37,699 bases of DNA from the IMG/VR virus record IMGVR_UViG_3300028429_000330, one strand, 5' to 3'. The notes below the pieces were generated by a model. That model ran no database searches. It was not told the DNA's origin and was given only the letters and a program-made list of their open reading frames with translations. The DNA comes from a virus. Positions 1,922 to 37,699 of this stretch are shown here, one piece after another; the first letter of the stretch is position 1; each line of letters starts with the position of its first letter. The position numbers and the translations under genes are program-made.

Positions 1922-2076
1922 GCGCCGACCTGCTGCTGATCCTGCTGCTGGTGGCGCTGGCGCTGCTGCCGGCCTGCACCTCATCCGGCGGCCGGCCCAA
2001 CGTCAACCCGCGGCCAACCGGCCGGCGACCGCCGCCGCCGCCGGCGCCGCCGCCCAAGAAGAGGATCGCGCCATGA
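1918..2076 (+). CDS. 52-aa signal-peptide / lipoprotein-like, proline-rich micro-protein (MSADLLLILLLVALALLPAC|TSSGGRPNVNPRPTGRRPPPPPAPPPKKRIAP)
   Basis: GTG 1918 overlaps the endolysin stop (GTGA); its stop overlaps the next start (ATGA). Third positions are very GC-rich. Hydrophobic leader ends in LLPAC, a non-canonical lipobox with Pro at -2. Not in the ORF track (<60 aa). Confidence 0.45.
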   Translation: MSADLLLILLLVALALLPACTSSGGRPNVNPRPTGRRPPPPPAPPPKKRIAP

Positions 2077-2189
2077 CCAAGCCCAAGGCTACTTACCGCT
2101 ACCGCAGCGCCGTCACCGGCCGCTACGTGAAGGCCGCCTACGCCAAGCGGTACCCCGCGCGCACCGTGCGCGAGCGGGTGCGGCGGTGA
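2073..2189 (+). CDS. 38-aa highly basic micro-protein (MTKPKATYRYRSAVTGRYVKAAYAKRYPARTVRERVRR)
   Basis: ATGA overlap upstream and GTGA overlap downstream. Resembles the small YRSxxTGRFV..AK.HP family that I recall seeing in phages and plasmids; this is recollection, not a search. Confidence 0.45.
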   Translation: MTKPKATYRYRSAVTGRYVKAAYAKRYPARTVRERVRR

Positions 2190-2746
2190 TCCCCGGCCTG
2201 CCCGCGCCGCTGGCCAGCCTGCGCGCTGCGCTGGCCGTGGCGGGCCTGCTGGCGGTGCTGGCGGTGCTCGCTGCGGTCTACCTGCTCGGGCGCAGCCACG
2301 AGGCTGCTGGCTGGCGCCTGAAGGCCGCCCAGGCCGCCGCCGCCACCGAGCGCGCCATCGCCATCGAGCAGGGGCGCCAGCGCAGCATCGAGCAGCAATG
2401 GCGCGCCACCGTCGACCAGCAAGCCCAGGAGCTCACCCATGCCCGCAAGACCATCGCTGATCAGGCTGCTCGCCTCGCTGCTCTGCGGCTCGATGCTGGC
2501 CAGCTGCGCAACCAGCTCGCCGGCTACGCCGCCGGTCCCCCCGGCGCGGATCCCGCCGCCACCTGTCCAGCCCGGGCTGCCGCACTTGCAGCCTATGGTG
2601 CCGATCTTGGAGCCGCTGCTGCGGCGGTTGGACGAGCTGCTCGCCAGGCCGCCCTCGAGCGAGACCAGTTCGCTGCCGAAGTCCTCGCCTGCGCCCGCGC
2701 CTGGCCTACAGCGCCAGGCGTGATCGACCCGTTTCCTGGGCGGTAG
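2186..2746 (+). CDS. i-spanin (Rz-like): N-terminal TM anchor plus periplasmic coiled coil
   Basis: ORF track 186 aa. TM segment LAVAGLLAVLAVLAAVYLL, followed by an Ala/Gln/Arg-rich helical region. Contains an embedded +1-frame lipoprotein ORF. Last gene of the lysis cassette. Confidence 0.75.
   Translation: MIPGLPAPLASLRAALAVAGLLAVLAVLAAVYLLGRSHEAAGWRLKAAQAAAATERAIAIEQGRQRSIEQQWRATVDQQAQELTHARKTIADQAARLAALRLDAGQLRNQLAGYAAGPPGADPAATCPARAAALAAYGADLGAAAAAVGRAARQAALERDQFAAEVLACARAWPTAPGVIDPFPGR
2439..2723 (+). CDS. o-spanin (Rz1-like) outer-membrane lipoprotein, fully embedded in the i-spanin gene
   Basis: ORF track 94 aa. Signal peptide MPARPSLIRLLASLLCGSMLAS|C has a canonical lipobox L-A-S-C. 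The mature part is proline-rich (PATPPVPPARIPPPPVQPGLP). Confidence 0.75.
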   Translation: MPARPSLIRLLASLLCGSMLASCATSSPATPPVPPARIPPPPVQPGLPHLQPMVPILEPLLRRLDELLARPPSSETSSLPKSSPAPAPGLQRQA

Positions 2747-2750
2747 GTCG

Positions 2751-3062
2751 TTACTCTTCCTTCTCCCGCGCGAGCGCCCGGCAACTGAGCTTGGCCTCGC
2801 GCGCGGTCTTCTTCCGGTGCGCCTCAGTGGTCAGCCACTGCAGGTTGCTCACCGCGTCACTGCCGCCGCACTTCAGTGGCGTCACATGATCCACTTCCCA
2901 GCCCTTACACGCGCCCGTCGACTTCCCGGTCGAAGGGCAGGGCGCCAGCCGCTTGAACTCCGCCACCACGGCGCGCGATCGGCCCTGCGACAGTGCTACC
3001 CCACACGGGGCTAGCGTCAACGCAATGGCGAGGCTGTACGCAAGCAGGCGGGGCATCCTCAT
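2751..3062 (-). CDS. Secreted (periplasmic) small HNH / His-Me-finger motif protein; moron next to attP
   Basis: In ORF 2751..3167; start MRMPRLL at 3062 (or 3056). Signal peptide MRMPRLLAYSLAIALTLAPCGVALSQ. Motif GWEVDHVTPLKCGGSDAVSNLQWLTTEAHRKKT (D-H...N...H). Six Cys in the mature part. Convergent with the spanin genes across a 4-nt gap. Confidence 0.7.
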   Translation of the reverse strand: MRMPRLLAYSLAIALTLAPCGVALSQGRSRAVVAEFKRLAPCPSTGKSTGACKGWEVDHVTPLKCGGSDAVSNLQWLTTEAHRKKTAREAKLSCRALAREKEE

Positions 3063-3179
3063 GGCGCAGGCTACCTTGTTGGTAAACGGCCGCTTTTGGC
3101 CATGCGTCCCGCAGGCAAGGCACGACGCGTTACCAACCGCACGACGGCCAAGTCCTTGAAGTGTCACGAAACCGCCGGA

Positions 3180-3226
3180 GATTCGTAATCAGTAGGTCGG
3201 TGGTTCGAGTCCACTCAGCAGCACCA
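3180..3226 (+). other. attP core: 3' portion of a tRNA-Thr(CGU) gene, running from the anticodon-stem end to CCA
   Basis: Reads GA-TTCGTAA(anticodon loop, CGT)-TCAGT-AGGTC-GGTGG-TTCGAGT-CCACT-CAGCAGC-A-CCA. The T arm pairs (one G-U). No matching 5' acceptor (GCTGCTG), D arm or 5' anticodon-stem strand lies upstream, so this is a fragment and not a gene. Confidence 0.75.
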
Positions 3227-3256
3227 GGAATCAAGAACTTAGCGCTGCGATCCGAC

Positions 3257-3282
3257 CCGATTACCAACGCGTTGGTAATCGG
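3257..3282. repeat. Perfect 26-bp palindrome CCGATTACCAACG|CGTTGGTAATCGG next to the att core
   Basis: Read directly: the 13-nt arms are exact reverse complements with no loop. Contains TTACC/GGTAA half-sites like the operators, but with an 8-bp spacer. No T-run on either side. Confidence 0.7.
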
Positions 3283-3362
3283 CAGTTGCTACAGCAGGTC
3301 AGGCCGGTGCTTCTTGAGCCAGGCGATGACGTCGCTCAGCACCACCATCGTGCAGTTGGGCG

Positions 3363-3575
3363 TCAAGTGTTCCACTCGCTGCCCGGCGCACGCCGTAGAT
3401 CGACAACCACCTGCCTCAAGTACCGCGGCGCGATGTCTTCGATCTTGGTGATTTCCGTGCTGTGAATCTCGATACCATCGACGTAGCAGCCGGTGCGTTT
3501 CTCTAGGTCAGCCAGCAAGAAAGCGATCTGCCGCTGCACCGCGTCCACGATTCCGCGTCTATCAGTGTCGTACAT
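3363..3575 (-). CDS. Hypothetical 70-aa protein (cassette A, ORF2)
   Basis: ATG at 3575 inside ORF 3363..3677, preceded by GAGAGGAAG SD. GC content by eye is lower than in neighbouring genes. Last gene before attP. Confidence 0.55.
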   Translation of the reverse strand: MYDTDRRGIVDAVQRQIAFLLADLEKRTGCYVDGIEIHSTEITKIEDIAPRYLRQVVVDLRRAPGSEWNT

Positions 3576-3594
3576 CTTCCTCTCTCGGTAGGTC

Positions 3595-3651
3595 GCCCAA
3601 CTGTAGGTCAAGCGGACTCGCTGCGCTCGCCGCTTACCACGGCGTTGTGGC
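3595..3651 (-). promoter_or_regulatory. Conserved 57-nt imperfect hairpin element, copy A (intercistronic / 5'-UTR RNA structure)
   Basis: About 75% identical to 9051..9107 in the same orientation. Folds as P1 GCC(A)CAAC/GUUGGGC, P2 GUGGUAAGCGG/CCGCUU(G)ACC(U)AC, and an apical stem closed by a GCA loop. Differences from copy B are compensatory. Confidence 0.55.
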
Positions 3652-3760
3652 CACCCTCGTTTTCCGAGCGGATGCACAGCAAGCCGGTGGCCGAGTCGAC
3701 TTCCAAGCAGACCGGCAAACCCTCGGCAAGCTCGATCACGCCCTCCATTTGAGTGCTCAT
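3608..3760 (-). CDS. Hypothetical 50-aa protein (cassette A, ORF1; paralog of 9141..9371)
   Basis: ATG 3760 overlaps the integrase stop (ATGA). Sequence MSTQMEGVIELAEGLPVCLEVDSATGLLCIRSENEGGHNAVVSGERSESA. Shares GL.V...VD..TG.LL.(I/V)R...EN.EG with the 9141..9371 product. Not in the ORF track. Confidence 0.45.
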   Translation of the reverse strand: MSTQMEGVIELAEGLPVCLEVDSATGLLCIRSENEGGHNAVVSGERSESA

Positions 3761-4770
3761 CGCAGCGGCCTCACCTTCTCGCCCCGGCGGTAGACCCGCC
3801 GCGTCACCGACTCGCTGGTGTGACCCAGCAGCTCCTGCGCTTGGCGCAGCGAGTCCGAGTCACTGGCCGCCTTGGCCCGCAGATCGCGGAACTGCCAGGC
3901 GGCCAGCGCCACTTTCTCCTGATCCTTCCCGTCCCCACGCACGGCCTCGCGCGCGGCGTCAAAGCGCCGGCGCAGCTGCCAGTAGGTGAGCGGCGTGCCG
4001 TCGTCGTTGGCCAGCACCCACAGCGAGCTGGCTTGCCGCGTGCGGCCGAGCGCGCGCTCGATGATGCTGGCCAGCGCCGGCGTGATCTCGATGCGCAGCG
4101 CCTTGCGCGTCTTGGCCTGGCGCACCTGCAGGTGGCCGTCGACGATGTCGCTGCGCTTGGCGCCGAGAACGTCCTTGACGCGCTGGCCGATGAGCAGCGC
4201 CAGGTCCATGGCGTCCTGCAGCACGCCGTCGGCCTTGGCGTAGACCGCGGCGTACATGGCGTCGGTCACCAGCACGTCGCGCGGGCGTTCCTTGTTCTTG
4301 GTGACGCCGGCCACTGGGTTCTCGCCCTGGGTGTAGTCCCACTCGCGGGCGCGGTTGTAGACGTGGCTGAGCAGCGCCACCTCGCGGTTGGCCATGACCT
4401 TGGCGCTGCGCTTGTCGAGGTAGGCGCGCACGTCGGCGGGGCGAATGTCGGCCACCTGCATGGCGCCGAACACGGCCACCAGGCGCGTGAGCTGCGCGTC
4501 CTGCTCGATCTGCGTCTTCCGGCCCTTGGTGGGCAGCACTTCGCGGCGGTAGCGCGCGGCCACCTGGGCAAAGCTGCTGGCCGGCGCGGTGAGCGGGCCG
4601 GCCTCGAGCTGGGCCCACTGCTGCTTGGCGCGGCCGAGGTCATCGCCCAGCGGCAGCATGCGCTTGCCGCCGGTGTAGTAGTACAGCAGCCGGCCGCCGC
4701 TCTGCCGCGCGGTCATGCGCGGCGGCAGGTCCTTGTGCTTGTGCTTGGGGCGGCCCATGCGGTCCATCAT
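3757..4770 (-). CDS. int: Tyrosine recombinase (phage integrase)
   Basis: ORF 3757..4872; start MMDRMGRPKH at 4770 (4767 or 4758 also possible), an ATGA overlap with the upstream gene. Contains LALLIGQRVKDVL (box I Arg) and LLGHTSESVTRRVYRR (H-x-x-R ... Y). Confidence 0.9.
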   Translation of the reverse strand: MMDRMGRPKHKHKDLPPRMTARQSGGRLLYYYTGGKRMLPLGDDLGRAKQQWAQLEAGPLTAPASSFAQVAARYRREVLPTKGRKTQIEQDAQLTRLVAVFGAMQVADIRPADVRAYLDKRSAKVMANREVALLSHVYNRAREWDYTQGENPVAGVTKNKERPRDVLVTDAMYAAVYAKADGVLQDAMDLALLIGQRVKDVLGAKRSDIVDGHLQVRQAKTRKALRIEITPALASIIERALGRTRQASSLWVLANDDGTPLTYWQLRRRFDAAREAVRGDGKDQEKVALAAWQFRDLRAKAASDSDSLRQAQELLGHTSESVTRRVYRRGEKVRPLR

Positions 4771-5048
4771 GCCATCACCGCAATCTGTTCGCGCACCCGC
4801 ACCGGGGTGAAGCGCCAGCGGCGCAGGTGGTCGGTGCGGGTGCGGTACTGCGCGCGCTTGGCGCGGCACCACGCGACGGCGTCCTTCTTCCGGTCGAAAA
4901 GCAGCGGCCGCGTCGGCTCTCCAGCGTAGTGCGGAGACGGCGGCGGGCAGTTACATCCCGTGCCAAGCAGCTTGCGATGGCGGCCGCCGTCGCCGACCGT
5001 CCAGAACACCACGCCCCACTTGAGGCGGTCCCAGCCCTTGGCCTTCAT
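4767..5048 (-). CDS. Hypothetical 93-aa protein upstream of int
   Basis: ORF track. Strong GC3 in frame. ATGA overlaps at both ends. No motif recognised. Confidence 0.6.
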   Translation of the reverse strand: MKAKGWDRLKWGVVFWTVGDGGRHRKLLGTGCNCPPPSPHYAGEPTRPLLFDRKKDAVAWCRAKRAQYRTRTDHLRRWRFTPVRVREQIAVMA

Positions 5049-5278
5049 GTGATGGCAGCCAGGTTGGGTTCAGCCGCTCGCGGCGGTGAGCTGGTTGCCG
5101 CGCTGATTGGCAGGCGTGGATCCAGTGCAGCGCGCAGCAAGCGCGGCTTGCCGGCGGCGTTGCAGAAATAGTCCGCGCGCTCGGCAAAGCCGTTGCGCTC
5201 GAGCCAGGCGCGCTGCCTGGCCGCGGTCTTGTAGCCGCTCAGGTCGGCCAGCTCGGCGTCGGTGAGCCAGGCGGTCAT
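5045..5278 (-). CDS. DUF4224-like small protein (typical integrase-proximal phage gene)
   Basis: ATG 5278 (MTAWLTDAELADLSGYKTAARQRAWLERNGF...), an ATGA overlap with the upstream gene. The pattern L(T/S)..E(L)A.L(T/S)G.K....Q..WL..NG is recalled from DUF4224. Confidence 0.65.
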   Translation of the reverse strand: MTAWLTDAELADLSGYKTAARQRAWLERNGFAERADYFCNAAGKPRLLRAALDPRLPISAATSSPPRAAEPNLAAIT

Positions 5279-5793
5279 GCGCGGCGGAACTCCACCACCC
5301 AAACCCACGGGTTTGCGCGCCAAGAGTCGGCGCCGTTCAGGTCGCACCACAGGTGTTCGTACCAAACGCGCGGGTCTTCGCCGCGTGCCATGTTGACGAA
5401 AGGGCAACCTTCGGCCATCGCGTCGCCGCGCGTGATGTCTTGCAGCCGCTCGACGCGGACGCCGGTTATCACTAGCGTGATGCGGCTGGCGGCGCGCGGC
5501 ATGAAGATCGACGGGCGCCACTTCAGCGGGCCGTACTCGGCTTTGTCTGGTAGTTGGTCGGTCGCGCGATACCACAGCGCGTCGTCGTAGGGGTTGCATG
5601 CCCACGTCTCGCGCACCCAAAGCCTGTCGCCGGGCGCGCCGAAGGGGCAGCGCGACGGCCCACCATCAGCAGGGGCCACAAGGTCAAGGCGATAGTCGCC
5701 GCCGGGCTTCAGCACGCGCCGCGTCTGCGTCTTGGTCCCTGCCAGCAGGGCGCGCACCATCGGCGCGCTGAACAGGATGCCGCGCTCTTTCAT
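5275..5793 (-). CDS. ASCH-like phage protein (172 aa)
   Basis: ATG 5793, an ATGA overlap with the methyltransferase stop. N-terminus ILFSAPMVRALLAGTKTQTRRV is typical of ASCH-type proteins found next to phage methyltransferases (recollection). Only the last 172 codons of ORF 5275..7542 are used. Confidence 0.6.
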   Translation of the reverse strand: MKERGILFSAPMVRALLAGTKTQTRRVLKPGGDYRLDLVAPADGGPSRCPFGAPGDRLWVRETWACNPYDDALWYRATDQLPDKAEYGPLKWRPSIFMPRAASRITLVITGVRVERLQDITRGDAMAEGCPFVNMARGEDPRVWYEHLWCDLNGADSWRANPWVWVVEFRRA

Positions 5794-7334
5794 GCCGCCA
5801 CCATGCCGGCATCGATCGCCGCCTCGTGCGCAAAGTTCGCCCGCACCAGCGCCGCAGCGATCGGCGGGCAGACGCTGTTGCCGCACATGCGCACCTGCGC
5901 GTGCTTGGGCAGCGGGCGGCCGTTGTGCTGGAACTCGATCAAGTAGCTGTCGGGGAAGCCCTGCGCCCGGTACAGCTCCCGAGGCTGCAGCATGCGCATG
6001 CCGATGTCGGCGATGGCGTACTGCTCGCCGGCCACGGTGACCAGGCCAAAGCGGTCGCGCGTGGTGACCGTGTGCATCGGCTCGGTCAGCCGTGGATCCT
6101 GGTCGGTGCCGTAGAACTTCAGCAGCAGCGCGCGGACCTCGGCGAAGTGGGTGCCGTGCGCGGCGATGGTCTGCAACGGCTCGTCCGTGCCGTGGCCCGT
6201 GTTGGTGCCGCGCAGCTTGGTGATCGTACTGGCCACCAGCCCGTGATGGTCCTGCGTGGTGATGGTGTCGGTCGGGCGGTCCGCGGCTACGCCCGGCGTC
6301 TCGTTGCCGCCGTAGTGCTTGGCGAGGAACGCGGCCACCAGGGCGTGCTTCTGGCCGCCGGCGACCACGGTGCCGAGCGGCTTGTCGATGCCAGGCACGC
6401 GCGGCGCCTGGCCCTCGCGCTCGCCGTAGCCGGTCTGCACAAGCGTCGGCGCGCAAAGGGCCAGCTCGCCGCCGTTGGCGGTGGTCAGCGTGCGCACGGG
6501 CTCGTCGATGGGGTGCACGCGCGCATCGCCGGTGTGAGTTAGCGGCACGATGAACGGGTTGCCGCTGTTCACCACGTACTTCATCACCCCGCGCGCGATC
6601 CGGCGCAGCGTGTTCTCGGCCAGCGGCCGGCTGCGCTTGAAGATCGACGGGCACGGCAGCGACCAGTCGATGCACTCGGCCGCGCTGCGGTACGGCAGGC
6701 GGCCGGGTCCGTGCGTGGGCTCCGGCCAAACGACCGGCAGGCCGTCGCAGCGCGCGATGACAAAGAGGCGCTTGCGGGTCGTCGGAGCGCCGTAATCGCA
6801 GGCGCGCAGCTCGCGGTGCTCGACCTTGTAGCCGAATCGCCGCAGCTGGTTCAGCCACAGCGTGAAGGTCTTGCCGCGCCCGCGTGGGCACGGCTTGCCG
6901 TCCTCGGTCAGCGGTCCCCAGTCGGCAAACTCCTCGACGTTCTCCAGCATGATCACGCGAGGCCGCACGCGCTTGGCCCAGCGGATCACCACCCAGGCCA
7001 GCCCGCGCACTCGAGGTGAACGCGGCGCCCCGCCCTTGGCCTTGCTGTGATGTGTGCAGTCCGGGCTGAACCAGGCAAGGCCCACCGGCTGATTGCCCGT
7101 GATCTCGGTCGGCTCCACCTTGAACACCGACTCGCAGTAGTGCACGGTCGACGGATGGTTGACCCGGTGCATGGCGATGGCCTCCGGGTCGTGGTTGATC
7201 GCAATGTCGACCGGGCGGCCGACGGCCTGCTCGATGCCGGTGCTGGCACCGCCGCCGCCGGCAAAGTTGTCGACGATGAGCTCGGCGCGCAGGCCAAGCG
7301 GCAGGGTGAAGGCGTCGCGCTTCACCCCTGGCAC
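5790..7334 (-). CDS. DNA (cytosine-5)-methyltransferase
   Basis: ORF track 514 aa. Motif I DNFAGGGGAS, motif IV WFSPDCTHHS (PC), motif VI IMLENVEEF, motif VIII AQGFPDSY, motif X CGNSVCPPIA. Confidence 0.9.
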   Translation of the reverse strand: MPGVKRDAFTLPLGLRAELIVDNFAGGGGASTGIEQAVGRPVDIAINHDPEAIAMHRVNHPSTVHYCESVFKVEPTEITGNQPVGLAWFSPDCTHHSKAKGGAPRSPRVRGLAWVVIRWAKRVRPRVIMLENVEEFADWGPLTEDGKPCPRGRGKTFTLWLNQLRRFGYKVEHRELRACDYGAPTTRKRLFVIARCDGLPVVWPEPTHGPGRLPYRSAAECIDWSLPCPSIFKRSRPLAENTLRRIARGVMKYVVNSGNPFIVPLTHTGDARVHPIDEPVRTLTTANGGELALCAPTLVQTGYGEREGQAPRVPGIDKPLGTVVAGGQKHALVAAFLAKHYGGNETPGVAADRPTDTITTQDHHGLVASTITKLRGTNTGHGTDEPLQTIAAHGTHFAEVRALLLKFYGTDQDPRLTEPMHTVTTRDRFGLVTVAGEQYAIADIGMRMLQPRELYRAQGFPDSYLIEFQHNGRPLPKHAQVRMCGNSVCPPIAAALVRANFAHEAAIDAGMVAA

Positions 7335-7696
7335 CCCTTGCCAATGGCCCCGGCGTCATTGCTGGCAGTGAACCGCTGCCACGGGATCCAGCCCTCGCGC
7401 TCGCAGTGGAAGCCCCAGGTGCGCAGGCGCGGGCCGGTGATGAAGAGGGTGGTGCAAGGCTTGGGCTGGCGCACGCGCCGCACCACGCCGTCGGGCAGTC
7501 GCTCGGTGGTGCGGGTGAGCTCCAGCTCGATGCGGTGCGCACTCCACGGCGACCGCAGCTTGAGCTCGCCGGCCACGCGTCGCGCGCGGCGGTGGATGCC
7601 GCCGGCGGCGATCTCGCGCTCGATGGTCTTCATCGACACGCCGAGCTGCGCCGCGGCGTCGCGCAGCGTGAGCAGTTGTTGTTCAGCGGGTTTCAC
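7322..7696 (-). CDS. Excisionase/MerR-type helix-turn-helix DNA-binding protein (candidate Xis or regulator)
   Basis: GTG 7696. N-terminus LLTLRDAAAQLGVSMKTIEREIAAGGI matches the excisionase-family HTH pattern. The C-terminal 80 aa are unassigned. Overlaps the methyltransferase start by 13 nt. Confidence 0.6.
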   Translation of the reverse strand: MKPAEQQLLTLRDAAAQLGVSMKTIEREIAAGGIHRRARRVAGELKLRSPWSAHRIELELTRTTERLPDGVVRRVRQPKPCTTLFITGPRLRTWGFHCEREGWIPWQRFTASNDAGAIGKGCQG

Positions 7697-7825
7697 GGAT
7701 TGGTTATGCGGTCGGTCGGCTGCGGATTGAGCTGGGCAATCAATCAGTTGCGCGCGGATGTTCTCGTTGAGCCGAGGCAGGTTATTCGGCGGCCGGTGCG
7801 ATCGAAATCAAGTTAGATGCGCCAG

Positions 7826-8674
7826 TCAATCGGTGCATCCGATGCACTCGATGCCGTCCTCCGCTTCGGCGGCAGCGTGCCCAAAGGCATCGGCTTGCGC
7901 CTCCGTGAAGGCCAGCATCTGTGCGTAACTCGGGCGGTCTTTCCTGAAGGTGCCGCCGTTCTGAATATTCGCGTTCGTGATGCTGCTCTCCTGCTTGGCC
8001 CACCACACCCCGCGCCGCGGGTTCTCGGCAATGAGGCTCATCACAATGGCGCTGTGCTTCAAAAAGCACAGGTCGCAATTGCCGTGCATGGTCGCGCCGT
8101 TCACGTTCGGCAACGCCAGGTCAAACGGGGCGGTCTGCCAGTAGCGGCCCACTTCCTGCCGCGTCACGCCCAGGTCGGCCAGCGGGGCGCGGCGCTCAAT
8201 GCCGCGCGTGCCGCCACTCGGGTCGGCGCGCAGCTTCGCTATGCGCTTCGGCTCGTCAGCCCGCAGGCCCACCAGCACCTCGAATTCCTCGTGCCCCAGG
8301 CTGCGCATGTAGTCCGCGATGCGCAGTATCTTTAGCTCCACCGTGCAGAACCGCGCCACCGGGTTCGGGAGGTAGTTGCGCTTCCGAATCAGCGCCTCGA
8401 ACGGTTCTCCATTCCTGCTGGCGGTGTGGAAGTTCACTTGCCGCCAGCCTTCGCCGAAGTCGCAATACTCCACCCAGGCAATCGGCACGCGCCAGTAGCG
8501 GGCGCAGTCTTCCACAAACCGCAGCGTCTTCTCGTCTTCCTTGCCGGTGTTGGCAAACACCACATGGCAGTCGGGCGGCAGCGTGCCGCCGTGCGCGTCC
8601 AGCAGCAGGCGCAGCATGTAGGCGCTCGTCCTGCCTCCGCTGAAACTCACTACCGTTGGTCCGTCAATCGTCAT
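7826..8674 (-). CDS. PAPS-reductase-family PP-loop protein with C-terminal Cys cluster (DndC/APS-reductase-like)
   Basis: ORF 7826..8704; ATG 8674 preferred (GGAG SD 7 nt upstream). PP-loop VVSFSGGRTSAYM. Cys pairs HGNCDLCF and IECIGC suggest an Fe-S site. Confidence 0.8.
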   Translation of the reverse strand: MTIDGPTVVSFSGGRTSAYMLRLLLDAHGGTLPPDCHVVFANTGKEDEKTLRFVEDCARYWRVPIAWVEYCDFGEGWRQVNFHTASRNGEPFEALIRKRNYLPNPVARFCTVELKILRIADYMRSLGHEEFEVLVGLRADEPKRIAKLRADPSGGTRGIERRAPLADLGVTRQEVGRYWQTAPFDLALPNVNGATMHGNCDLCFLKHSAIVMSLIAENPRRGVWWAKQESSITNANIQNGGTFRKDRPSYAQMLAFTEAQADAFGHAAAEAEDGIECIGCTD

Positions 8675-8704
8675 TCGTTCGCTCCGGATACGCGCATCTA
8701 ACAC

Positions 8705-8745
8705 CCGGGTCGAGCTGACCCGCCGCTGGCGGGCAGCTCACCCGG
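8705..8745 (-). other. Long GC-rich hairpin immediately downstream of 8750..9028
   Basis: CCGGGT-C-GAGCTG-A-CCCGCC-gct-GGCGGG-CAGCTC-ACCCGG: 18 paired positions with two single-nt bulges. No U-run on the transcribed (-) strand. Confidence 0.5.
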
Positions 8746-8749
8746 CCCG

Positions 8750-9028
8750 TTAGGCCTTCTTGTCGCGGTCCATGCGCATCAGCGCTTCGCCCATGCCGCG
8801 CACAAGCGCGCGCATCAGAATCCACGTCTCCACATCCACAACCTTGATGCCGTCGCCGGTGGGCCCGCGGTAGATCACGCCGGGCCAGGGGTCGTCGGTC
8901 GTCCAGCGCTCATCGAACAGCAGGCGCTCCGCTTCCACCAGCTTGGCACGCTGCTCCAGCCACTTCGCTTCTGCCGCCTCGCGTGCGGGCTTGTCGTCAA
9001 TGAAGGCTTGCCACTGTTGCTTGTCCAT
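8750..9028 (-). CDS. Hypothetical 92-aa protein (cassette B, ORF2)
   Basis: ORF track. ATG 9028 preceded by GGAGAGGAAG SD, which is part of the conserved element. No motif recognised. Confidence 0.6.
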   Translation of the reverse strand: MDKQQWQAFIDDKPAREAAEAKWLEQRAKLVEAERLLFDERWTTDDPWPGVIYRGPTGDGIKVVDVETWILMRALVRGMGEALMRMDRDKKA

Positions 9029-9050
9029 GCTCTTCCTCTCCGGCCACCAG

Positions 9051-9107
9051 GCCTAACTGTCGGTTCAAGCGGACGCCGTGCCGGCGCCGCTTAACCTGGC
9101 GTTAGGC
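9051..9107 (-). promoter_or_regulatory. Conserved 57-nt imperfect hairpin element, copy B
   Basis: P1 GCCUAAC/GUUAGGC, P2 GGUUAAGCGG/CCGCUU(G)AACC, P3 CGCCG-GCA-CGGCG. Same length, orientation and position (upstream of an SD+ATG) as 3595..3651. Confidence 0.55.
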
Positions 9108-9140
9108 AGCCCCAATACATGCAGGCCGCCAGTCGTTGCT

Positions 9141-9371
9141 TCAGGCAAAGTCGTTGGTGCGCAACAGCTTCGGCATCGTGACGCTGCGGCCTTGGTTGCG
9201 CAGTCCTTCCACGTTTTCAGTCGTGCGACCCGGCATGCGCACCAGCAGGTTGCCGGTCTTCTTGTCCACGGTGTAAACCACCTTCAGGCCGTCGACCACC
9301 ATGTATTCGTCATCCATCCATGGGCGAGTTCTACGGCCAGCGACATCGGGGGCCAGTTCAGTCATCTGCAT
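9141..9371 (-). CDS. Hypothetical 76-aa protein (cassette B, ORF1; paralog of 3608..3760)
   Basis: ATG 9371 inside ORF 9141..9401, AAGGAA SD. The segment MVVDGLKVVYTVDKKTGNLLVRMPGRTTENVEG aligns with the 3608..3760 product. Confidence 0.55.
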   Translation of the reverse strand: MQMTELAPDVAGRRTRPWMDDEYMVVDGLKVVYTVDKKTGNLLVRMPGRTTENVEGLRNQGRSVTMPKLLRTNDFA

Positions 9372-9588
9372 TGCTTCGTTCCTTTTGTTTGGCGGCGTCA
9401 AGGGTGCCGCCTAACCCGTCATTCGAGCCGACCTTCGGCGGCTCAATTCCCACGTTGCGCGGCAGGATGAGCCAGCGCAGCAGGTAGGGCGAAGCCTCAC
9501 CGCCGATGATGAAGTCGGGCCGGCGGCTGGTAATCACGCGCTGGGCCCAGGCGGCCAGGCGGCGGGTGATGAAGGCGGGCAGGTGCAT
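9358..9588 (-). CDS. Hypothetical 76-aa protein; possibly the N-terminal remnant of a longer phage gene
   Basis: ORF track. RPDFIIGGEASPYLLRWLILPRN resembles the start of a roughly 150-aa phage family that I recall continuing with ..YLH.F..SD.DRALHDHPW. That continuation is absent here. The 3' end overlaps the 9141..9371 start. Confidence 0.4.
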   Translation of the reverse strand: MHLPAFITRRLAAWAQRVITSRRPDFIIGGEASPYLLRWLILPRNVGIEPPKVGSNDGLGGTLDAAKQKERSNADD

Positions 9589-9593
9589 GTGGG

Positions 9594-9800
9594 TCAGTCG
9601 TCGTTATGTGCGGCCAGCGCCTTGGGGTCTGGCCGGCGGTTGCGGTTGGGGTTGCGGATGAAGGCCACGCCGATCTCCAGGGCCGTGCGCCGGTAAGGCA
9701 GCAGCAGCGCCGCGCGGAAGCTCACGCCGCAGCGGTGCAGGCCGCTGCGGTGGTAGGCCTCGAGCAGCTCGGCCTCGGTGGCGGGCGGGGTCAGGGCCAC
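9594..9800 (-). CDS. Hypothetical 68-aa protein
   Basis: GTG 9800 inside ORF 9594..9968, 2 nt after the upstream stop. GC3-rich frame (ALTPPATEAELLEAYHRSGLHRCGVSF...). Confidence 0.45.
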   Translation of the reverse strand: MALTPPATEAELLEAYHRSGLHRCGVSFRAALLLPYRRTALEIGVAFIRNPNRNRRPDPKALAAHNDD

Positions 9801-9802
9801 GG

Positions 9803-9952
9803 TTACTCGGCGTGCTCGGGGCGCGGGTCGAACGGCACCAGCACCAGGTACAGCAGCGCGGTCTCGCGCTCGAGCAGCAGGTCGAGCCACTGCCAAAGCG
9901 CGAGGGCGAAGGCGCAGCTGGCGAACCAGAGGGGCAGGGCGGCGGTCAGCAC
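9803..9952 (-). CDS. Hypothetical 49-aa single-pass membrane peptide
   Basis: GTG 9952 overlaps the upstream stop region. Sequence VLTAALPLWFASCAFALALWQWLDLLLERETALLYLVLVPFDPRPEHAE. It is the tail of ORF 9803..10294. Confidence 0.35.
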   Translation of the reverse strand: MLTAALPLWFASCAFALALWQWLDLLLERETALLYLVLVPFDPRPEHAE

Positions 9953-10206
9953 ACGCGGCCCAGCACATTGCGCGAAAACTCGCTGGCCAGAGCGAACACC
10001 CGCTCGCGGTCGCCCACGCGCGAGGCCAGGAAGATGGCCGCGATGGTGGTGTTGGCGGTCGCCTGCAGCCTCTCGGTCACCATGGCCTGCAGCTGCACCA
10101 GCTCGTCGTGGTCGAGGTCGTCGACAATGCTTGCCAGGTCGAGATCGACGTCGACGCAGGTTGAAACGTCGACCGTCGTGTTGATGGTGAGGCGGCTCTT
10201 GCTCAT
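9946..10206 (-). CDS. Hypothetical 86-aa acidic protein
   Basis: ATG 10206 (AAGGGGGAG SD, ATGA overlap with the upstream stop) inside ORF 9946..10410. Begins MSKSRLTINTTVDVSTCVDVDLDLASIVDDLDHDELVQLQ... Confidence 0.6.
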   Translation of the reverse strand: MSKSRLTINTTVDVSTCVDVDLDLASIVDDLDHDELVQLQAMVTERLQATANTTIAAIFLASRVGDRERVFALASEFSRNVLGRVC

Positions 10207-10511
10207 CGCTGCTCCCCCTTCGCCAGCGGGCTCCCCAGCGGCGCCCGCGCCTTGTTGAGCAGCCGGCCGCTGCCGCCGGCACACACCCACACATCGTCGA
10301 TGGGGTACTGGCCGGTGATGAGCACGGCGCGCTCTTGCTCGGTGCACAGGCCTACGGCGGCCTGGCGGTCGGCCTGCATGAGCAGGCGCGCGTCGCGCTG
10401 GCCGACCCACATGCCCCAGGGCCAGATCACCAGCAGCGCGGCCACGCTGGCGACTGCAAGGCCGGCGGTGAAGCCGAAGACGTACTCAATGCGGTCGATG
10501 CGCGGCCTCAC
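10203..10511 (-). CDS. Hypothetical 102-aa membrane-anchored protein
   Basis: GTG 10511 (GTGA overlap with the upstream stop) inside ORF 10203..10670. TM segment YVFGFTAGLAVASVAALLVIWPWGMW. Confidence 0.5.
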   Translation of the reverse strand: MRPRIDRIEYVFGFTAGLAVASVAALLVIWPWGMWVGQRDARLLMQADRQAAVGLCTEQERAVLITGQYPIDDVWVCAGGSGRLLNKARAPLGSPLAKGEQR

Positions 10512-10915
10512 GAGCGCGCTCCCGATGCGATGCCGCCCTCGCGCGCCGCTTTGCGGGCGCGGCAGCGCGCCACGTGGCACGGCTTGCAGTACGCGTGCAA
10601 ACGCAATCGTCCCCGGATCGTCAGCGAGTAATAGTGCGCCGCCGGCTTGACCTCGGAGCACAGTGCGCACCGCTTCTGGTCCGGTAGCGGGACGGGCGGC
10701 GTACGAGTGCGCTCGCGCCCTCGGATGGGCGCGGCGTCCGGAAGGGTCGGCGGCGGCATCGTGACGCGGCGCGGTTCGAGCACAAGCTCAACACCGGGAT
10801 GGCTGAGCTGCACGGCGCTGACCGTGAAGCCGCCCTGGCCGTCGGGCCGGCCGATGTAGTAGCGGTGGTGGGGCGTGCCGGCCAGGGGGCGGCGAAAGCA
10901 GACGGTGCGGTGCAT
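10508..10915 (-). CDS. Hypothetical protein with C-terminal C4 zinc-ribbon (CALC ... CKPC)
   Basis: ORF track 135 aa. ATG 10915 overlaps the upstream stop by 1 nt (TAATG). Contains KRCALCSEVKPAAHYYS...HAYCKPCHVARCRARK. Confidence 0.55.
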   Translation of the reverse strand: MHRTVCFRRPLAGTPHHRYYIGRPDGQGGFTVSAVQLSHPGVELVLEPRRVTMPPPTLPDAAPIRGRERTRTPPVPLPDQKRCALCSEVKPAAHYYSLTIRGRLRLHAYCKPCHVARCRARKAAREGGIASGARS

Positions 10916-11379
10916 TACGCCAGCCTCCAGACGCGGTACCGGCCGTCAAGCTCCTGGCGCTGCGTGGGCTTGGCGCCCAGGCGGCGCAGGGCGGAAGACA
11001 GGCCGTTGGCCTCATTGGCGGTGGCCACGGCCACGCTGTCGCCGGGCGCCATGTGTACGGCCACGCGCGCCCACTTGCCGAAGTGGCCGTTGATGGGTAG
11101 CGGCACGTTGCGCTCGATGGGGGGCAGGCCGTTGGCGGGCGCGCCGGTCGCGGCGGCTGGCGCCAAAGGGCTGGCGGGTTGGCTGGCGGGCTGCACTCTC
11201 ACGGTGGGCTGGCCTTTCTCGTTGGTGGTGACAACTCGCACCAGGCGCTCGGGGTTGCGCTCGGTGCGGCGTTGGGCGGCGGGGGTGCGCAGGGCGGCTT
11301 CACCCCACAGCGGGTCGGTGCCGTCGTCATCGCTCAGGCGGTGGCGGCGGCTGGTGGGCAGGTCGGCCATGCGGGTCAT
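10915..11379 (-). CDS. Hypothetical 154-aa protein
   Basis: ATG 11379 (ATGA overlap) inside ORF 10915..11424. No motif recognised. Confidence 0.55.
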   Translation of the reverse strand: MTRMADLPTSRRHRLSDDDGTDPLWGEAALRTPAAQRRTERNPERLVRVVTTNEKGQPTVRVQPASQPASPLAPAAATGAPANGLPPIERNVPLPINGHFGKWARVAVHMAPGDSVAVATANEANGLSSALRRLGAKPTQRQELDGRYRVWRLA

Positions 11380-11636
11380 CGCTTGGCCTCCGGCCACCAG
11401 ACGATGCAGTCGTCGAGCTCGCACCAGCGCCAGCTGCTCACGCTCCAGTGGCGCAGGTGGGCGCTGTCCAGGTGGTCGGCCAGGCGGCCGGGGTGGCGCA
11501 GCACGATGACGGCGCGGCCGGCGCCAGCCTGTACGTGGTCGATGTCGGCCTCGAGCTCAGCCAGGCGCATGACGGCCAGCTGCGCCAGCTGCAATCGGCC
11601 GGTGACGGCGGCGGCGGTGCGGGCGGTGGTGGTCAT
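11376..11636 (-). CDS. Hypothetical 86-aa protein
   Basis: ATG 11636 (ATGA overlap) inside ORF 11376..11897. Begins MTTTARTAAAVTGRLQLAQLAVMRLAELEADIDHV... Confidence 0.5.
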   Translation of the reverse strand: MTTTARTAAAVTGRLQLAQLAVMRLAELEADIDHVQAGAGRAVIVLRHPGRLADHLDSAHLRHWSVSSWRWCELDDCIVWWPEAKR

Positions 11637-11881
11637 GTGGTGGGTCTCCCGCCCAGCAGCAGGGTCTGCTGCAGCTCGTGCTCGGCCGCAAGCACCGGCT
11701 GCGCAATCTCCATGGTGTTGAGCCAGCGCACACAAGCGGCGCTCAGCGCGTCGAGCGCGGCGCGTTCTGCCGGGGTCTGCGGGCGCGGCAAGGTGGCGGC
11801 GTAGTGCGTGGCCGCGTCGGCCAGCGCGGTGCCGGCCTGCAGGCTCTGAATCAGCGCGTAGGCGCAGCGCAGGCGGTTCAC
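11633..11881 (-). CDS. Hypothetical 82-aa protein
   Basis: ORF track. ATGA overlaps on both sides. Confidence 0.55.
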   Translation of the reverse strand: MNRLRCAYALIQSLQAGTALADAATHYAATLPRPQTPAERAALDALSAACVRWLNTMEIAQPVLAAEHELQQTLLLGGRPTT

Positions 11882-12123
11882 GACTCACCCCGGCCACAGT
11901 AGAAATCGGCAGAGCCGGAGGGCAGGAAGTCCGGCGCGTCGAGGCAGTGGTGGGCCTCTTCCACGTCGGCGAGCATTGCCTCGATGGTGGTGCCCCGCAT
12001 GCAATTGGCCGCGTTGATGGCGCGGAAGTAGCTCTGCAGGTCGACGGGCTGGCCGCTGTAGGCGGCCATGTCCCGAATGATCGGGACGCGGTAGGAGAAG
12101 AGGGGAGAGCGTTGCACGTCCAA
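11878..12123 (-). CDS. Hypothetical protein, first gene of the early-left operon
   Basis: ORF track (TTG 12123). GTG 12117 is more likely, with GGAG 6 nt upstream. About 20 nt downstream of the predicted PL-like promoter. Confidence 0.55.
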   Translation of the reverse strand: MDVQRSPLFSYRVPIIRDMAAYSGQPVDLQSYFRAINAANCMRGTTIEAMLADVEEAHHCLDAPDFLPSGSADFYCGRGES

Positions 12124-12144
12124 CTCCGTCAGAAGACGGAGCGG

Positions 12145-12173
12145 ACGTTACCTACAGGTTAATCCTGTGTCAA
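12145..12173 (-). promoter_or_regulatory. Leftward early promoter (lambda PL analogue): -35 TTGACA, 17-bp spacer, -10 TAACGT
   Basis: Minus strand reads tttacctacgggtaTTGACAcaggattaacctgtaggTAACGTccgc. The -35 is at 12173-12168 and the -10 at 12150-12145. Both operator copies overlap it. Confidence 0.6.
12149..12160. promoter_or_regulatory. Operator-like site OL-a, TACCTACAGGTT (one mismatch to TACC-N4-GGTA)
   Basis: Lies in the spacer and -10 of the PL-like promoter. Shares its core with the sites at 12174, 13612 and 13662. Confidence 0.5.
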
Positions 12174-12185
12174 TACCCGTAGGTA
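12174..12185. promoter_or_regulatory. Operator-like site OL-b, TACCCGTAGGTA (TACC-N4-GGTA)
   Basis: Abuts the -35 hexamer and lies 5 nt from the stop codon of 12190..12900. Confidence 0.55.
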
Positions 12186-12189
12186 AATG

Positions 12190-12900
12190 TCAGGCGACCA
12201 GCCGGTCTACCAGCTCTTCGGGCAGGTAAACCCACACGCCGTAGTTGCGGTCCTTGCCGCGCACCTCGGCCGGGGCTGTGAGCTCGGGGGTGCCGCTGGA
12301 GACATTGAAGTGCGCGCACACCGCACCGGCGTAGCGCTTGGCTATCTCGCGCGGCAGGTAGCCCACCAGGCGGCCGGCCAGCTCAACGCGCACCGCGTTC
12401 TTGTCGTGCGCGTTGGTGGGCTCGGGCCGCAGCGTTGCGGTGAGCAGGCGCGGCGTGTTGAAAGACGCGTGGATCTCGGCAATCGGGCGCAGCGCGTCCT
12501 GGTAGTTGGACTCGCCCACCACCTCCAGCTCGTCGAGCCCGTCGGTGTGGGTGTCGTTGCTCAGGCTGCGCTTCACGTCTTCGGTGATCAGGTCGTGGCC
12601 GCAGTGCTTGCACTTGAAGGCATCGCGCAGCACCCACTCCGCACACGCGGGGCACTTGCGGTGCGTGGCTTCGGTGATTACGGGCTCGGCCGGCCTGGCG
12701 CTGGCCGCAGCGGCCGCCGCGGCCAACTGCGCGGCCTGCTGCTGGGTGCGCAGGTTGGGCAGCACCAGCACCAGCAGAATGCCAATGAGCGGCGAGAGCA
12801 GCACGCTCAACACAAACCAGCCAAAGCCGCTGCGCCCGCGGCTGCTGGCGGCCACACCGGCCACCACCGCGAACATGAACCACAGGAAGACGATCTCCAT
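12190..12900 (-). CDS. Membrane-anchored zinc-ribbon + HIRAN-domain protein, co-transcribed with the repressor (candidate exclusion/defence factor)
   Basis: ORF track 236 aa. Two N-terminal TM helices; CPAC-x10-CKHC zinc ribbon. C-terminal HIRAN hallmarks VVGESNYQ, LRPEPTNAHDKNAVRV, GRLVGYLPREIA. Starts 12 nt after the repressor stop, with GAGGGGG SD. Confidence 0.75.
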   Translation of the reverse strand: MEIVFLWFMFAVVAGVAASSRGRSGFGWFVLSVLLSPLIGILLVLVLPNLRTQQQAAQLAAAAAAASARPAEPVITEATHRKCPACAEWVLRDAFKCKHCGHDLITEDVKRSLSNDTHTDGLDELEVVGESNYQDALRPIAEIHASFNTPRLLTATLRPEPTNAHDKNAVRVELAGRLVGYLPREIAKRYAGAVCAHFNVSSGTPELTAPAEVRGKDRNYGVWVYLPEELVDRLVA

Positions 12901-12912
12901 GCGCGCACCCCC

Positions 12913-13590
12913 TCAGATGCTGCGATACAGACTCGCCTTCACGATACCGCCGACGTAGTGCATCAGCTCGATCTCGGACTCTTCGAGCGTGATGGGCGGG
13001 TGGTTCTCGTTGACAGAACGCAACTCCACCAGGCCGTTTCGCCTATTGGACAACATCTTGACCATGCTGCGGCCGTCGCGCGTCTTGACCAGGACCTCGT
13101 CGCCGGGCTCCACCGCTGAGTTGGGCTCCACGATCACGAACTCGCCGGGCCGGATGCGCGGCCGCATGCTGTCGCCCTTCACGCGCAGCGCGTAGGCGTT
13201 GCGGTCCCGCGTGGGGTAGCGGATCAGGCCATCGCCAAAGCCGGGCGGGTGCTGCAATTCGTCCCAGTAGCCGTCGTCGCCCATCTGAGCGGTGCCCACC
13301 ACCGGAATGTCGCGTAGCCACGAGTCGGTGTACTCCCAGGCGGCGGTTGGCTCCTGCACGCGGTGGGTCGGCTGCACGATGTCCAGCACGCCCGGCGGCA
13401 GCCCCAGCCGCTGCTCGATCTCGCGCGCCACCTGCTCGCCAATGCGCTTGCGGTGCACGGTCTCGGTAAACCAGCGCGAGACGTAAGTGGCGTCCTTGCC
13501 CACTTCGCGCGCCAGCGCGGCCTGGTTGCCGTCAAACCGCTCGGCCAGCAGGGCGCGCACGTTGGCCAGCCGGATGTCGTGAATGTCCAT
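12913..13590 (-). CDS. CI-like prophage repressor (N-terminal XRE-type HTH + C-terminal S24/LexA-like peptidase)
   Basis: ATG 13590 (MDIHDIRLANVRALL...) inside ORF 12913..13761. HTH NQAALAREVGKDATYVSRW. S24 catalytic motifs VKGDSMRP and VLVKTRDGRSMVKML. Divergent from the Cro-like gene. Confidence 0.85.
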   Translation of the reverse strand: MDIHDIRLANVRALLAERFDGNQAALAREVGKDATYVSRWFTETVHRKRIGEQVAREIEQRLGLPPGVLDIVQPTHRVQEPTAAWEYTDSWLRDIPVVGTAQMGDDGYWDELQHPPGFGDGLIRYPTRDRNAYALRVKGDSMRPRIRPGEFVIVEPNSAVEPGDEVLVKTRDGRSMVKMLSNRRNGLVELRSVNENHPPITLEESEIELMHYVGGIVKASLYRSI

Positions 13591-13611
13591 CTCCGGATTG
13601 CATCCCCTCAT

Positions 13612-13623
13612 TACCATTGGGTA
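13612..13623. promoter_or_regulatory. Operator-like site OR-a, TACCATTGGGTA (TACC-N4-GGTA)
   Basis: In the 97-bp divergent region between the repressor and Cro-like genes. Extended form TTACCATTGGGTAA is a palindrome. Confidence 0.6.
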
Positions 13624-13625
13624 AA

Positions 13626-13641
13626 TTGCCCCATGGGGTAA
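13626..13641. promoter_or_regulatory. Variant palindrome OR-b, TTGCCCCATGGGGTAA
   Basis: Near-perfect 16-bp palindrome with similar outer bases but a 2-bp longer core. Assignment to the same repressor is uncertain. Confidence 0.35.
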
Positions 13642-13661
13642 CGATGGACTTGCGTGGCCTT

Positions 13662-13673
13662 TACCTATGGGTA
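13662..13673. promoter_or_regulatory. Operator-like site OR-c, TACCTATGGGTA (TACC-N4-GGTA)
   Basis: 15 nt upstream of the Cro-like ATG. Overlaps a possible rightward promoter (TTGCGT 13650-13655 / TATACC 13672-13677). Confidence 0.6.
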
Positions 13674-13687
13674 TACCATGCGGGGTC

Positions 13688-13945
13688 ATGACGCTCCGTG
13701 AATACCTGAAATCGCTGCCCGACACCGCTGCCCGCGAGGCCTTTGCGCTTCGGTGTGGCACCTCGCTCGGTTACCTGCGGCTCGTGAGCTACGGCCACAA
13801 GACCGCGTCCGAGTCCTTGGCCCTTCGGGTGCAGGCCGAATCCGGCAATGCGGTGCAGGCGGCGCAGCTGCTGCCGAGCGTCGACTTTTCCTTCGTTGAC
13901 CGGCTGCAGGGCGCTGACAGCGCGGCTGCCACCGGGGCCGAGTAA
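13688..13945 (+). CDS. Cro/YdaS-like HTH regulator
   Basis: ATG 13688 (MTLREYLKSL...) inside ORF 13667..13945. The pattern ..FALRCGTSLGYLRLVSYGHKTAS..LALRV...SGN.V resembles YdaS/Cro-family proteins. Divergent from the repressor. Confidence 0.65.
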   Translation: MTLREYLKSLPDTAAREAFALRCGTSLGYLRLVSYGHKTASESLALRVQAESGNAVQAAQLLPSVDFSFVDRLQGADSAAATGAE

Positions 13946-13957
13946 AGGGCCATCGCA

Positions 13958-14206
13958 GTGGCACTCGAGAAGAAAGACACCAAGATCTACCTGGACCCGT
14001 CCGTGCACGCGGTCTTTGCCGAGATCGCGCAGGCGCGCGGCCTTACCCTGTCGCAGCTGGCCAGCTCGGTCGTGCAGCGCTATGTGGTTGATCAAGCCCA
14101 TGCCGCCACTGTGATCGCAGACGCCGCCAAGCGTGCGGGAATCGACCGGGTTGCAGCAGGAACTGCGTGGGAAAGTGCCGGAATGGCCGGGAGCGCGCAG
14201 GAATGA
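13958..14206 (+). CDS. Small possible ribbon-helix-helix protein (82 aa)
   Basis: ORF track (GTG 13958). KKDTKIYLDPSVHAVFAEIAQARGLTLSQLASSVVQRYV looks like a strand-helix-helix. The RHH call is tentative. Confidence 0.5.
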   Translation: MALEKKDTKIYLDPSVHAVFAEIAQARGLTLSQLASSVVQRYVVDQAHAATVIADAAKRAGIDRVAAGTAWESAGMAGSAQE

Positions 14207-37638: not shown

Positions 37639-37699
37639 TTCCGGTGATTACCATGCTAGAGGCTTTCGCGCTCGCGCTCACTATTGAGGTGGGCGCCAC
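37559..37699. repeat. Terminal overlap, second copy (identical to 1-141)
   Basis: See the 1..141 feature. Confidence 0.95.

Follow-up and report, generated by a model that had tools for sequence, protein, structure and literature searches.

Hairpin elements repeated in a lake temperate phage genome are very probably attC sites of integron gene cassettes

The minus strand of a 37,699-nt viral genome (IMG/VR record IMGVR_UViG_3300028429_000330; the whole stretch analyzed is referred to as the window) contains two similar 57-nt segments, each of which precedes a gene. What kind of element do these segments represent, and how may they have come to lie there? An earlier note, made from the nucleotide sequence, had proposed that they might serve in RNA processing, couple or occlude translation, or act as an RNA to which a protein binds. 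The homology to attC sites, the crossover signature and the cassette mobility described below point instead to sites of integron-type recombination.

The window is a complete temperate phage genome, circular or terminally redundant, since it carries an exact 141-nt terminal direct repeat (bases 1-141 are identical to 37559-37699). Its G+C content is 68%. A block of genes on the minus strand (approximately 2.7-13.8 kb) encodes an S24/CI-type repressor, a PAPS-reductase-like protein, a C5 DNA methyltransferase, a DUF4224 protein and a tyrosine integrase, and the late genes are located on the plus strand. Near-identical genomes of 37.5-37.7 kb have been assembled from many lake metagenomes (among them JGI 3300032116, 3300042691 and 3300008105), and the strand of every gene in the minus-strand arm agrees with independent gene calls in these assemblies. 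A related phage genome was not found in GenBank. The coordinates of the elements and of neighboring features are collected in Table 1.

Table 1. Putative attC sites, cassettes and neighboring features of the window. R1 and R2, covariance models (see text); SD, Shine-Dalgarno sequence; ↓, crossover point.
Feature	Coordinates	Strand	Match	Details
Split small phage gene	3292..3760	-		N-terminal part 3760-3645 (...NEGGHN); C-terminal part 3355-3292 (CTMVVLSDVIAWLKKHRPDLL, then stop)
Putative cassette 0 (289 nt)	3356..3644	-		attC0 body, SD, 70-aa ORF 3575-3363; own 3' box GTTGGGC; closing box GCCCAAC (3361-3355), its perfect complement; end GCCCAA↓C
Putative attC0 (copy A, 3595-3651)	3592..3652	-	R1 58.5 bits, E=8e-16; R2 57.3 bits	5' box GCC(A)CAAC, hybrid with target gene; 3' box GTTGGGC; apical stem with tandem G.A pairs
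Phage tyrosine integrase	3757..4770	-	PF00589, 50 bits	
Array end	7795..7818	-		ATCTAAC followed by TTGATTTCGATCG
Putative cassette 1 (937 nt)	7813..8749	-		attC1 body, SD, PAPS-reductase-like ORF 8674-7826; own 3' box GTTAGAT; closing box ATCTAAC (7818-7812), its perfect complement; end ATCTAA↓C
Putative attC1 (newly found, diverged)	8693..8757	-	R1 33.6 bits, E=6e-8; R2 49.1 bits	GCCTAAC ... GTTAGAT; bulged T and G
Putative cassette 2 (352 nt)	8750..9101	-		attC2 body, SD GAGAGGAAG, 92-aa ORF 9028-8750; own 3' box GTTAGGC; closing box GCCTAAC
Putative attC2 (copy B, 9051-9107)	9048..9109	-	R1 83 bits	GCCTAAC ... GTTAGGC; bulged T and G; 74-76% identical to aadA5 attC bottom strand
Putative cassette 3 (353 nt)	9102..9454	-		attC3 body, SD, 76-aa ORF 9371-9141; own 3' box GTTAGGC; closing box GCCTAAC; end GCCTAA of attC2 5' box, complement of own GTTAGGC
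Putative attC3 (newly found, diverged)	9406..9462	-	R1 26.5 bits, E=1e-5; R2 43.5 bits	GCGCAAC ... GTTAGGC; L box ATTGAGCCG / CGGCTC-G-AAT; bulged T and G

The positions and strand given previously for the two 57-nt segments are correct, as is their identity of about 75% (44 of 58 aligned columns, 76%, with one 1-nt indel), and each is followed by an SD and an ATG. The similarity does extend past the stop codon of the ORF upstream of copy A, the TGA of this 50-aa ORF being located inside the element (GCTTGACC). Both helices and the bulged G were found as described, together with a second conserved bulge (T). The statement that the two copies share a hairpin fold holds fully for copy B (z = -5.2 as RNA and z = -5.2 as DNA) and weakly for copy A RNA, which adopts the same architecture (z = -1.6), but not for copy A DNA, whose minimum-energy fold is different (z = -0.3).

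The core pattern of the element, TAAGCGGCG-N3-GCA-N4-GTCCGCTTGA, is present exactly twice in the window and was absent from 100 shuffled versions. Scanning of IMG/VR with this pattern identified 28 loci, 26 of which contain the whole element, and covariation was analyzed in a set of 23 distinct sequences and 22 base pairs. Pairing is retained in 92% of the paired cells, nine of the 22 pairs show changes on both sides, and the covariation score (0.239) exceeds those of shuffled sequences (0.077) and of slid partners (0.02-0.06). Compensatory change, first noticed between the two copies, is therefore borne out in the larger set, and the retained pairing supports selection on nucleic-acid structure rather than on protein. 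The bulged G (column 46) and the bulged T (column 39) are unpaired and invariant in all 23 sequences, and the AAC and GTT triplets of the outer boxes are invariant or nearly so. The mispairs comprise seven G.T and five A.C, which does not indicate an RNA-type wobble bias.

A comparison of copy B with plasmid sequences (blastn) yielded matches in approximately 900 enterobacterial plasmids, over 55 nt and with 74-76% identity. In two annotated examples the matching sequence is the spacer between aadA5 and qacEdelta1 and, because of this location, it was assigned to the attC of the aadA5 cassette. The minus strand of the window aligns with the strand opposite to aadA5, i.e. with the attC bottom strand, including the extrahelical G of the 3' arm (GCTT-G-AAC). 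The likeness to the aadA5 (aadA-type) attC of class 1 integrons extends to the length of 57 nt, the RYYYAAC/GTTRRRY boxes, the GCA apical loop and the inner stem AAGCGG/CCGCTT with an extrahelical G and T. Some viral relatives of the element (e.g. that of contig L025) share the aadA5 attC core almost exactly. GenBank phages contain no full-length match to either copy.

A covariance model (R1), an approach already suggested in the earlier note, was built from the 23 sequences and found further sites, including known attCs. With R1 the bottom strand of the aadA5 attC scored 70-74 bits and its top strand 18-25 bits, so that one model recognizes both this site and the phage element. R1 was too narrow for the arrays located beside viral intI genes, and a broader model (R2) was prepared; the bottom strand of the aac(6')-Ib attC scored 21.6 bits with R1 and 50.7 bits with R2. 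The same pattern and model detected long arrays in bacterial genomes, and several of these loci encode integron integrases 55-72% identical to IntI1. The length of the model matches ranges from 52 to approximately 130 nt, with a variable apical part. The attC sites of integrons are about 57-141 nt long and retain their structure while their sequence varies. Given the outer boxes, the L boxes with extrahelical bases, a structure more conserved than the sequence and the homology to an established attC, the 57-nt elements are very probably attC sites (59-base elements) of integron gene cassettes.

The functional form of such a site would be a single-stranded DNA hairpin formed by the attC bottom strand, which corresponds to the minus strand of the window. 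In this hairpin the 5'-RYYYAAC and GTTRRRY-3' boxes would be paired, and the inner stem, with its extrahelical T and G, would mark the strand. IntI would bind the folded strand, and the exchange would take place at the A-C step of AAC, which in the top strand is G↓TT.

When R1 was run on the window with filters switched off, two diverged sites (8693-8757 and 9406-9462) were detected on the same strand. The element, described previously as present twice, therefore occurs four times, and the outer boxes of all four sites fit RYYYAAC ... GTTRRRY (CCACAAC/GTTGGGC in attC0). The inner stem with its extrahelical bases is likewise common to the four sites. Their arrangement suggests that the four attC sites define four gene cassettes, each composed of one attC followed by an SD and a single ORF. 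Three of these form an array (7813-9454) with the minus-strand order attC3, SD, 76-aa ORF; attC2, SD, 92-aa ORF; attC1, SD, PAPS-reductase-like ORF; ATCTAAC. The fourth (3356-3644) is a single cassette situated between int and the probable attP. Recent duplication followed by drift was rejected as the source of copies A and B: they belong to different cassettes with different ORFs, and the closer relatives of each lie elsewhere than in the window.

The putative attC3 is 89% identical to a site shared by three other loci (L001, L005 and L027), and cassette 3 is supported by independent gene calls in L201-L205. The TAA stop codon of the 92-aa ORF of cassette 2 lies inside the next GCCTAAC box, and its product has 15 protein homologues (48-100% identity). 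The ORF of cassette 1 matches PF01507 and phrog_424, and searches of Pfam, NCBIfam and PHROGs gave no matches for the 70-, 76- and 92-aa cassette products. A gene encoding a 514-aa C5 DNA methyltransferase (5790-7334) is located two genes downstream of the PAPS-reductase-like cassette gene (7826-8674), which suggests a DNA-modification or anti-restriction module.

The boxes of these cassettes bear a distinctive signature. In all four window cassettes the closing RYYYAAC box is complementary at seven of seven positions to the GTTRRRY box of the cassette's own attC (Table 1), and the two boxes within one physical site are often mismatched (attC1, attC0 and attC3). In viral arrays this own-box signature was observed in 24 of 29 informative neighbor pairs, with a mean complementarity of 6.7/7, compared to 5.3/7 between the boxes of one physical site. 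In bacterial arrays own-box complementarity was the better of the two in 44 cases and the worse in eight. Own-box complementarity is the signature left by the G↓TT crossover in integron arrays.

Comparison with other genomes indicated that single cassettes have moved. A viral contig (L026) shares only region 8749-9108 with the window, at 99.2% identity; the identity starts at TGCCTAAC and stops at GGCCTAAC, both flanks are unrelated, and each break coincides exactly with one of the two GCCTAAC boxes. Cassette 2 thus resides in two contexts, and the 99% identity in a different context implies its recent transfer. In a Rhizobacter chromosome, an attC2-like site (98% identity) directly precedes a homologue of the PAPS-reductase-like gene, and the 92-aa cassette is missing. 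As discrete mobile units, the cassettes are represented both by cassette 2 in L026 and by cassette 0, which splits a gene.

The N-terminal part of this split gene is the 50-aa ORF whose stop codon lies in copy A, and the gene is interrupted at CACAA↓CTGC (bottom strand). Removal of region 3356-3644 joins ...GGC CAC AA with C TGC ACG... in frame and restores a 60-aa ORF ending in AWLKKHRPDLL. An intact 70-aa homologue (P0002) aligns across the junction (...NEGGHNC...AWLKKHRPDLL; BLASTP 1e-16 with the restored protein as query). The P0002 DNA at the junction reads CACAACTGC, and the empty-site junction of the window (cassette 0 absent) would read GGTGGCCACAACTGCACGATGG. Copy A thus marks a cassette inserted at a GTT secondary site within a gene, and this insertion accounts for its odd 5' box, GCC(A)CAAC. 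Insertion outside att sites, at IntI secondary (attG) sites with a GWT consensus, has been described (Loot et al., bioRxiv 10.1101/2022.09.11.507474), and the target of cassette 0 fits this consensus. As in that system, cassette 0 interrupts a gene at G↓TT and has a hybrid 5' box, with its own half-box displaced to the far end; the empty site is defined by an intact homologue. The cited events were experimental and concerned E. coli chromosomes, whereas that in the window is a natural one, in the region of a phage genome that separates int from the probable attP.

The probable attP core is a 47-nt stretch (3180-3226, minus strand) that corresponds, in reverse complement, to the 3' portion of a tRNA. 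It lies approximately 530 nt downstream of int, with cassette 0 between the two, and contains a T-arm (GGTTCGAGTCC), an acceptor end and the anticodon loop TTCGTAA, possibly of a Thr-CGU tRNA; ARAGORN did not find a complete tRNA at this position. A perfect 22-nt palindrome (3259-3280, GATTACCAACGCGTTGGTAATC) directly follows the stop codon of the restored 60-aa ORF.

A second gene, of the phrog_4786 family, also appears to be broken: its pieces are located at 9454-9588 and 7322-7696 (minus strand), with the three-cassette array between them. The first 45 residues end at AA↓C of attC3, the middle of the gene is missing, and the C-terminal part (profile positions 99-162) is fused behind an HTH_17/excisionase-like N-terminus in a 124-aa ORF.

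Could the hairpins nevertheless act as RNA? At each of the four sites the hairpin is on the coding strand of the early leftward transcript and precedes an SD and ATG by 10-15 nt, a position in which it might serve as an RNase III or RNase E processing site, an mRNA stabilizer or a translational control hairpin; copy B, moreover, folds very stably as RNA. Irregular bulged hairpins repeated along an early transcript before translation starts are also known from other phages (T7 RNase III sites, lambda sib and nut, HK022 put), but the window element has, as far as Rfam covers them, no sequence or model similarity to these, and conserves features of a DNA recombination site. Nothing in Rfam matched the element, neither at the gathering threshold (whole window) nor, with any relevance, at E<=1 (3300-9700), and the G.T and A.C mispairs show no wobble bias of the RNA type. 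A cis-acting RNA would also leave unexplained the homology to the aadA5 attC, the own-box complementarity, the cassette-sized mosaic shared with L026 and the splitting of a gene at CACAA↓CTGC. Since the bacterial counterparts of the element are antisense to genes, sense RNA is not its general functional form, and this explanation is highly improbable. The hairpin may still have a secondary effect in the mRNA, upstream of the SD; attC hairpins in integron mRNAs have been reported to lower the translation of the downstream cassette, a point that speaks for an RNA role. Still less credit, next to none, is due to a generic REP/MITE-like palindrome, or an intrinsic terminator without U residues, spread by duplication in a high-GC genome. 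The element is intergenic, palindromic and repeated, and often overlaps stop codons. However, it is not a plain terminator, as the earlier note had recognized: a T-run does not follow any of the four sites, and none of the three terminator-like sites predicted in region 2000-14500 coincides with an attC (a promoter scan of the same region gave nothing at the sites either). Moreover, the boxes conform to RYYYAAC/GTTRRRY, the element moves together with one ORF and no more, and many of the loci also have an integron integrase.

A more serious alternative, although an unlikely one, is that the elements are genuine attC sequences but are now fossils, left over from earlier cassette capture, unable to recombine and retained only as spacers between phage genes. 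The absence of IntI from the window, the weak DNA folding of copy A and attC3 (z = -0.5 for the latter), their hybrid 5' boxes and the recovery of the genome, nearly unchanged, from many metagenomes are consistent with this. On the other hand, attC2 and attC1 have a near-perfect architecture and fold strongly (z = -5.2 and -6.1, respectively, as DNA), the extrahelical bases are invariant, and the 99% identity of cassette 2 in L026 implies recent transfer. The attC sites are probably still active. Because of their poor DNA folds, and in copy A also the hybrid 5' box and the tandem G.A pairs, copy A and attC3 may be weak or fossil sites.

If the elements are functional attC sites, which recombinase acts on them? 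An integron integrase is not encoded in the window: the phage integrase matches PF00589 and, weakly, Xer models, but not TIGR02249 (the IntI1 control scored 507 bits), and tblastn with IntI1 gave no match in the window. The phage's own tyrosine integrase was considered as the attC recombinase and rejected, as it has no IntI features. A clear attI or Pc was likewise not found in the window. Since no IntI is encoded, the window represents a CALIN plus a solitary site rather than a complete integron, and the recombinase would be supplied by an IntI of a Burkholderiales host or of a co-resident element.

Candidate sources of such an enzyme were identified. In a Rubrivivax MAG a full IntI is located beside a site 98% identical to copy B. 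The viral contig L010 contains a truncated intI after its array (193-aa ORF, 54% identical to IntI1 residues 9-134), and approximately 65 IMG/VR contigs (L120-L184) encode full-length IntI proteins 50-76% identical to a Rubrivivax IntI. In the IntI-bearing loci, 61 of 63 model matches are located upstream of intI and on the intI strand. Many intI genes of L120-L184 lie at a contig end, and the upstream arrays have the canonical attC polarity, with ORFs mostly co-directional with intI.

Although no clear attI is present in the window, the array end (7795-7818) is tentatively regarded as an attI-like sequence or a secondary-site remnant. By eye, the window junction, AAC followed by TTGATTTCGAT, resembles those of L026 (approximately 7720-7745; GCCTAAC followed by TTAATTTAGGC) and L010 (approximately 10665-10735; GGCTAAC followed by TCAAATTC). 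The array ends of the window, L026 and L010 may be attI remnants, a likeness that was partly judged against attI1. Alignment of another contig (L022) with the window at the array end did not reveal a clean breakpoint.

The unusual feature of the window cassettes is that the attC bottom strand encodes their ORFs, an orientation opposite to that of ordinary cassettes. In class 1 integrons the cassette ORF lies on the top strand with attC 3' of it, whereas each of the four window ORFs is encoded on the bottom strand and has its attC on the 5' side, and independent gene calls agree; the window further differs from class 1 integrons by having no intI, attI or Pc. Control bacterial and plasmid arrays showed the usual layout, with ORFs opposite to the model strand.

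Orientation was counted only in intervals where the ORF of one strand fills at least 80% of the gap. ORFs on the bottom strand predominated in the viral pattern loci together with the window (24 bottom, 5 top) and in the IntI-bearing viral loci (21 and 10, respectively), and ORFs on the top strand in the bacterial loci (8 bottom, 26 top) and in the plasmid and bacterial controls (2 and 10, respectively). The pooled bottom-to-top ratios were 45:15 for viral and 10:36 for bacterial and plasmid arrays (Fisher p = 6e-8), figures that come from a crude, greedy ORF picker and phylogenetically non-independent loci, one of them (L032) ambiguous. In 20 of 31 viral loci most of the coding sequence in the 4 kb upstream of intI was on the strand of intI, and in one of 31 most of it was on the opposite strand, compared to five of five controls with the opposite strand. 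The apparent enrichment of the reversed orientation in viral arrays should be treated as a lead rather than as a result.

These counts leave room for a tentative proposal, possible although somewhat short of probable, that temperate phages of freshwater Burkholderiales carry a phage-adapted integron, in which arrays are placed in the early operon, all ORFs lie on the attC bottom strand, and transcription from a phage promoter proceeds towards attI, with or without a co-directional intI. Were this so, a pool of "reverse" cassettes would exist apart from the bacterial integron pool, transcription would expose the recombinogenic strand as the non-template strand, and IntI would shuffle phage accessory genes, of which the PAPS-reductase-like DNA-modification gene and some anti-defense genes may be examples. 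It could also be relevant to the way in which genes and attC sites come together. If the reversed orientation were general, the cassettes of phages would form a pool of their own, governed by a distinct expression logic and relevant to the unsolved origin of cassettes (gene plus attC).

The occurrence of attC sites and CALINs in phages has been reported (Qi et al. 2023, Front Microbiol, PMC9892861). That survey of deposited phage genomes identified 21 phages with attC and noted methyltransferase cassettes; the cassettes were typical co-oriented ones, and none of the 21 phages was found to be of the host group of the window. The window resembles these phages in containing attC without an integron integrase inside a phage genome, and in having DNA-modification genes among or next to the cassettes (here, the PAPS-reductase-like cassette near the C5 methyltransferase). 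It differs in its attC subfamily, for which GenBank phages gave no full-length match and which is common among IMG/VR contigs, mostly with reversed ORFs. In the literature searched, the coverage of which was partial, no report described phages with this attC subfamily, or phage arrays in the reversed orientation.

The kind of element is known and has rarely been described in phages; the carrier is new, and the footprints of cassette capture are unusually clear. What had been an anonymous hairpin points to a mechanism, integron-type site-specific recombination that would rewrite the accessory region of a phage and whose capture, exchange and gene-splitting events have left base-pair footprints. 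The few phages known to carry attC are joined by a lake phage that has been recovered widely and by dozens of viral contigs related to it, and through these carriers phage mosaicism would be linked with integron cassette traffic in Burkholderiales.

Two further observations were made outside the cassette regions. The repressor-adjacent gene (12190-12900) encodes a product with two N-terminal hydrophobic segments and, according to precomputed Pfam matches of the source contigs, a HIRAN domain. Within a late gene for a 478-aa protein, region 26095-26702 contains three direct repeats of approximately 32-37 nt, spaced by 190-390 nt (...AACACCTGGACC...), which suggest a repeated motif in a protein of the tail or fiber type.
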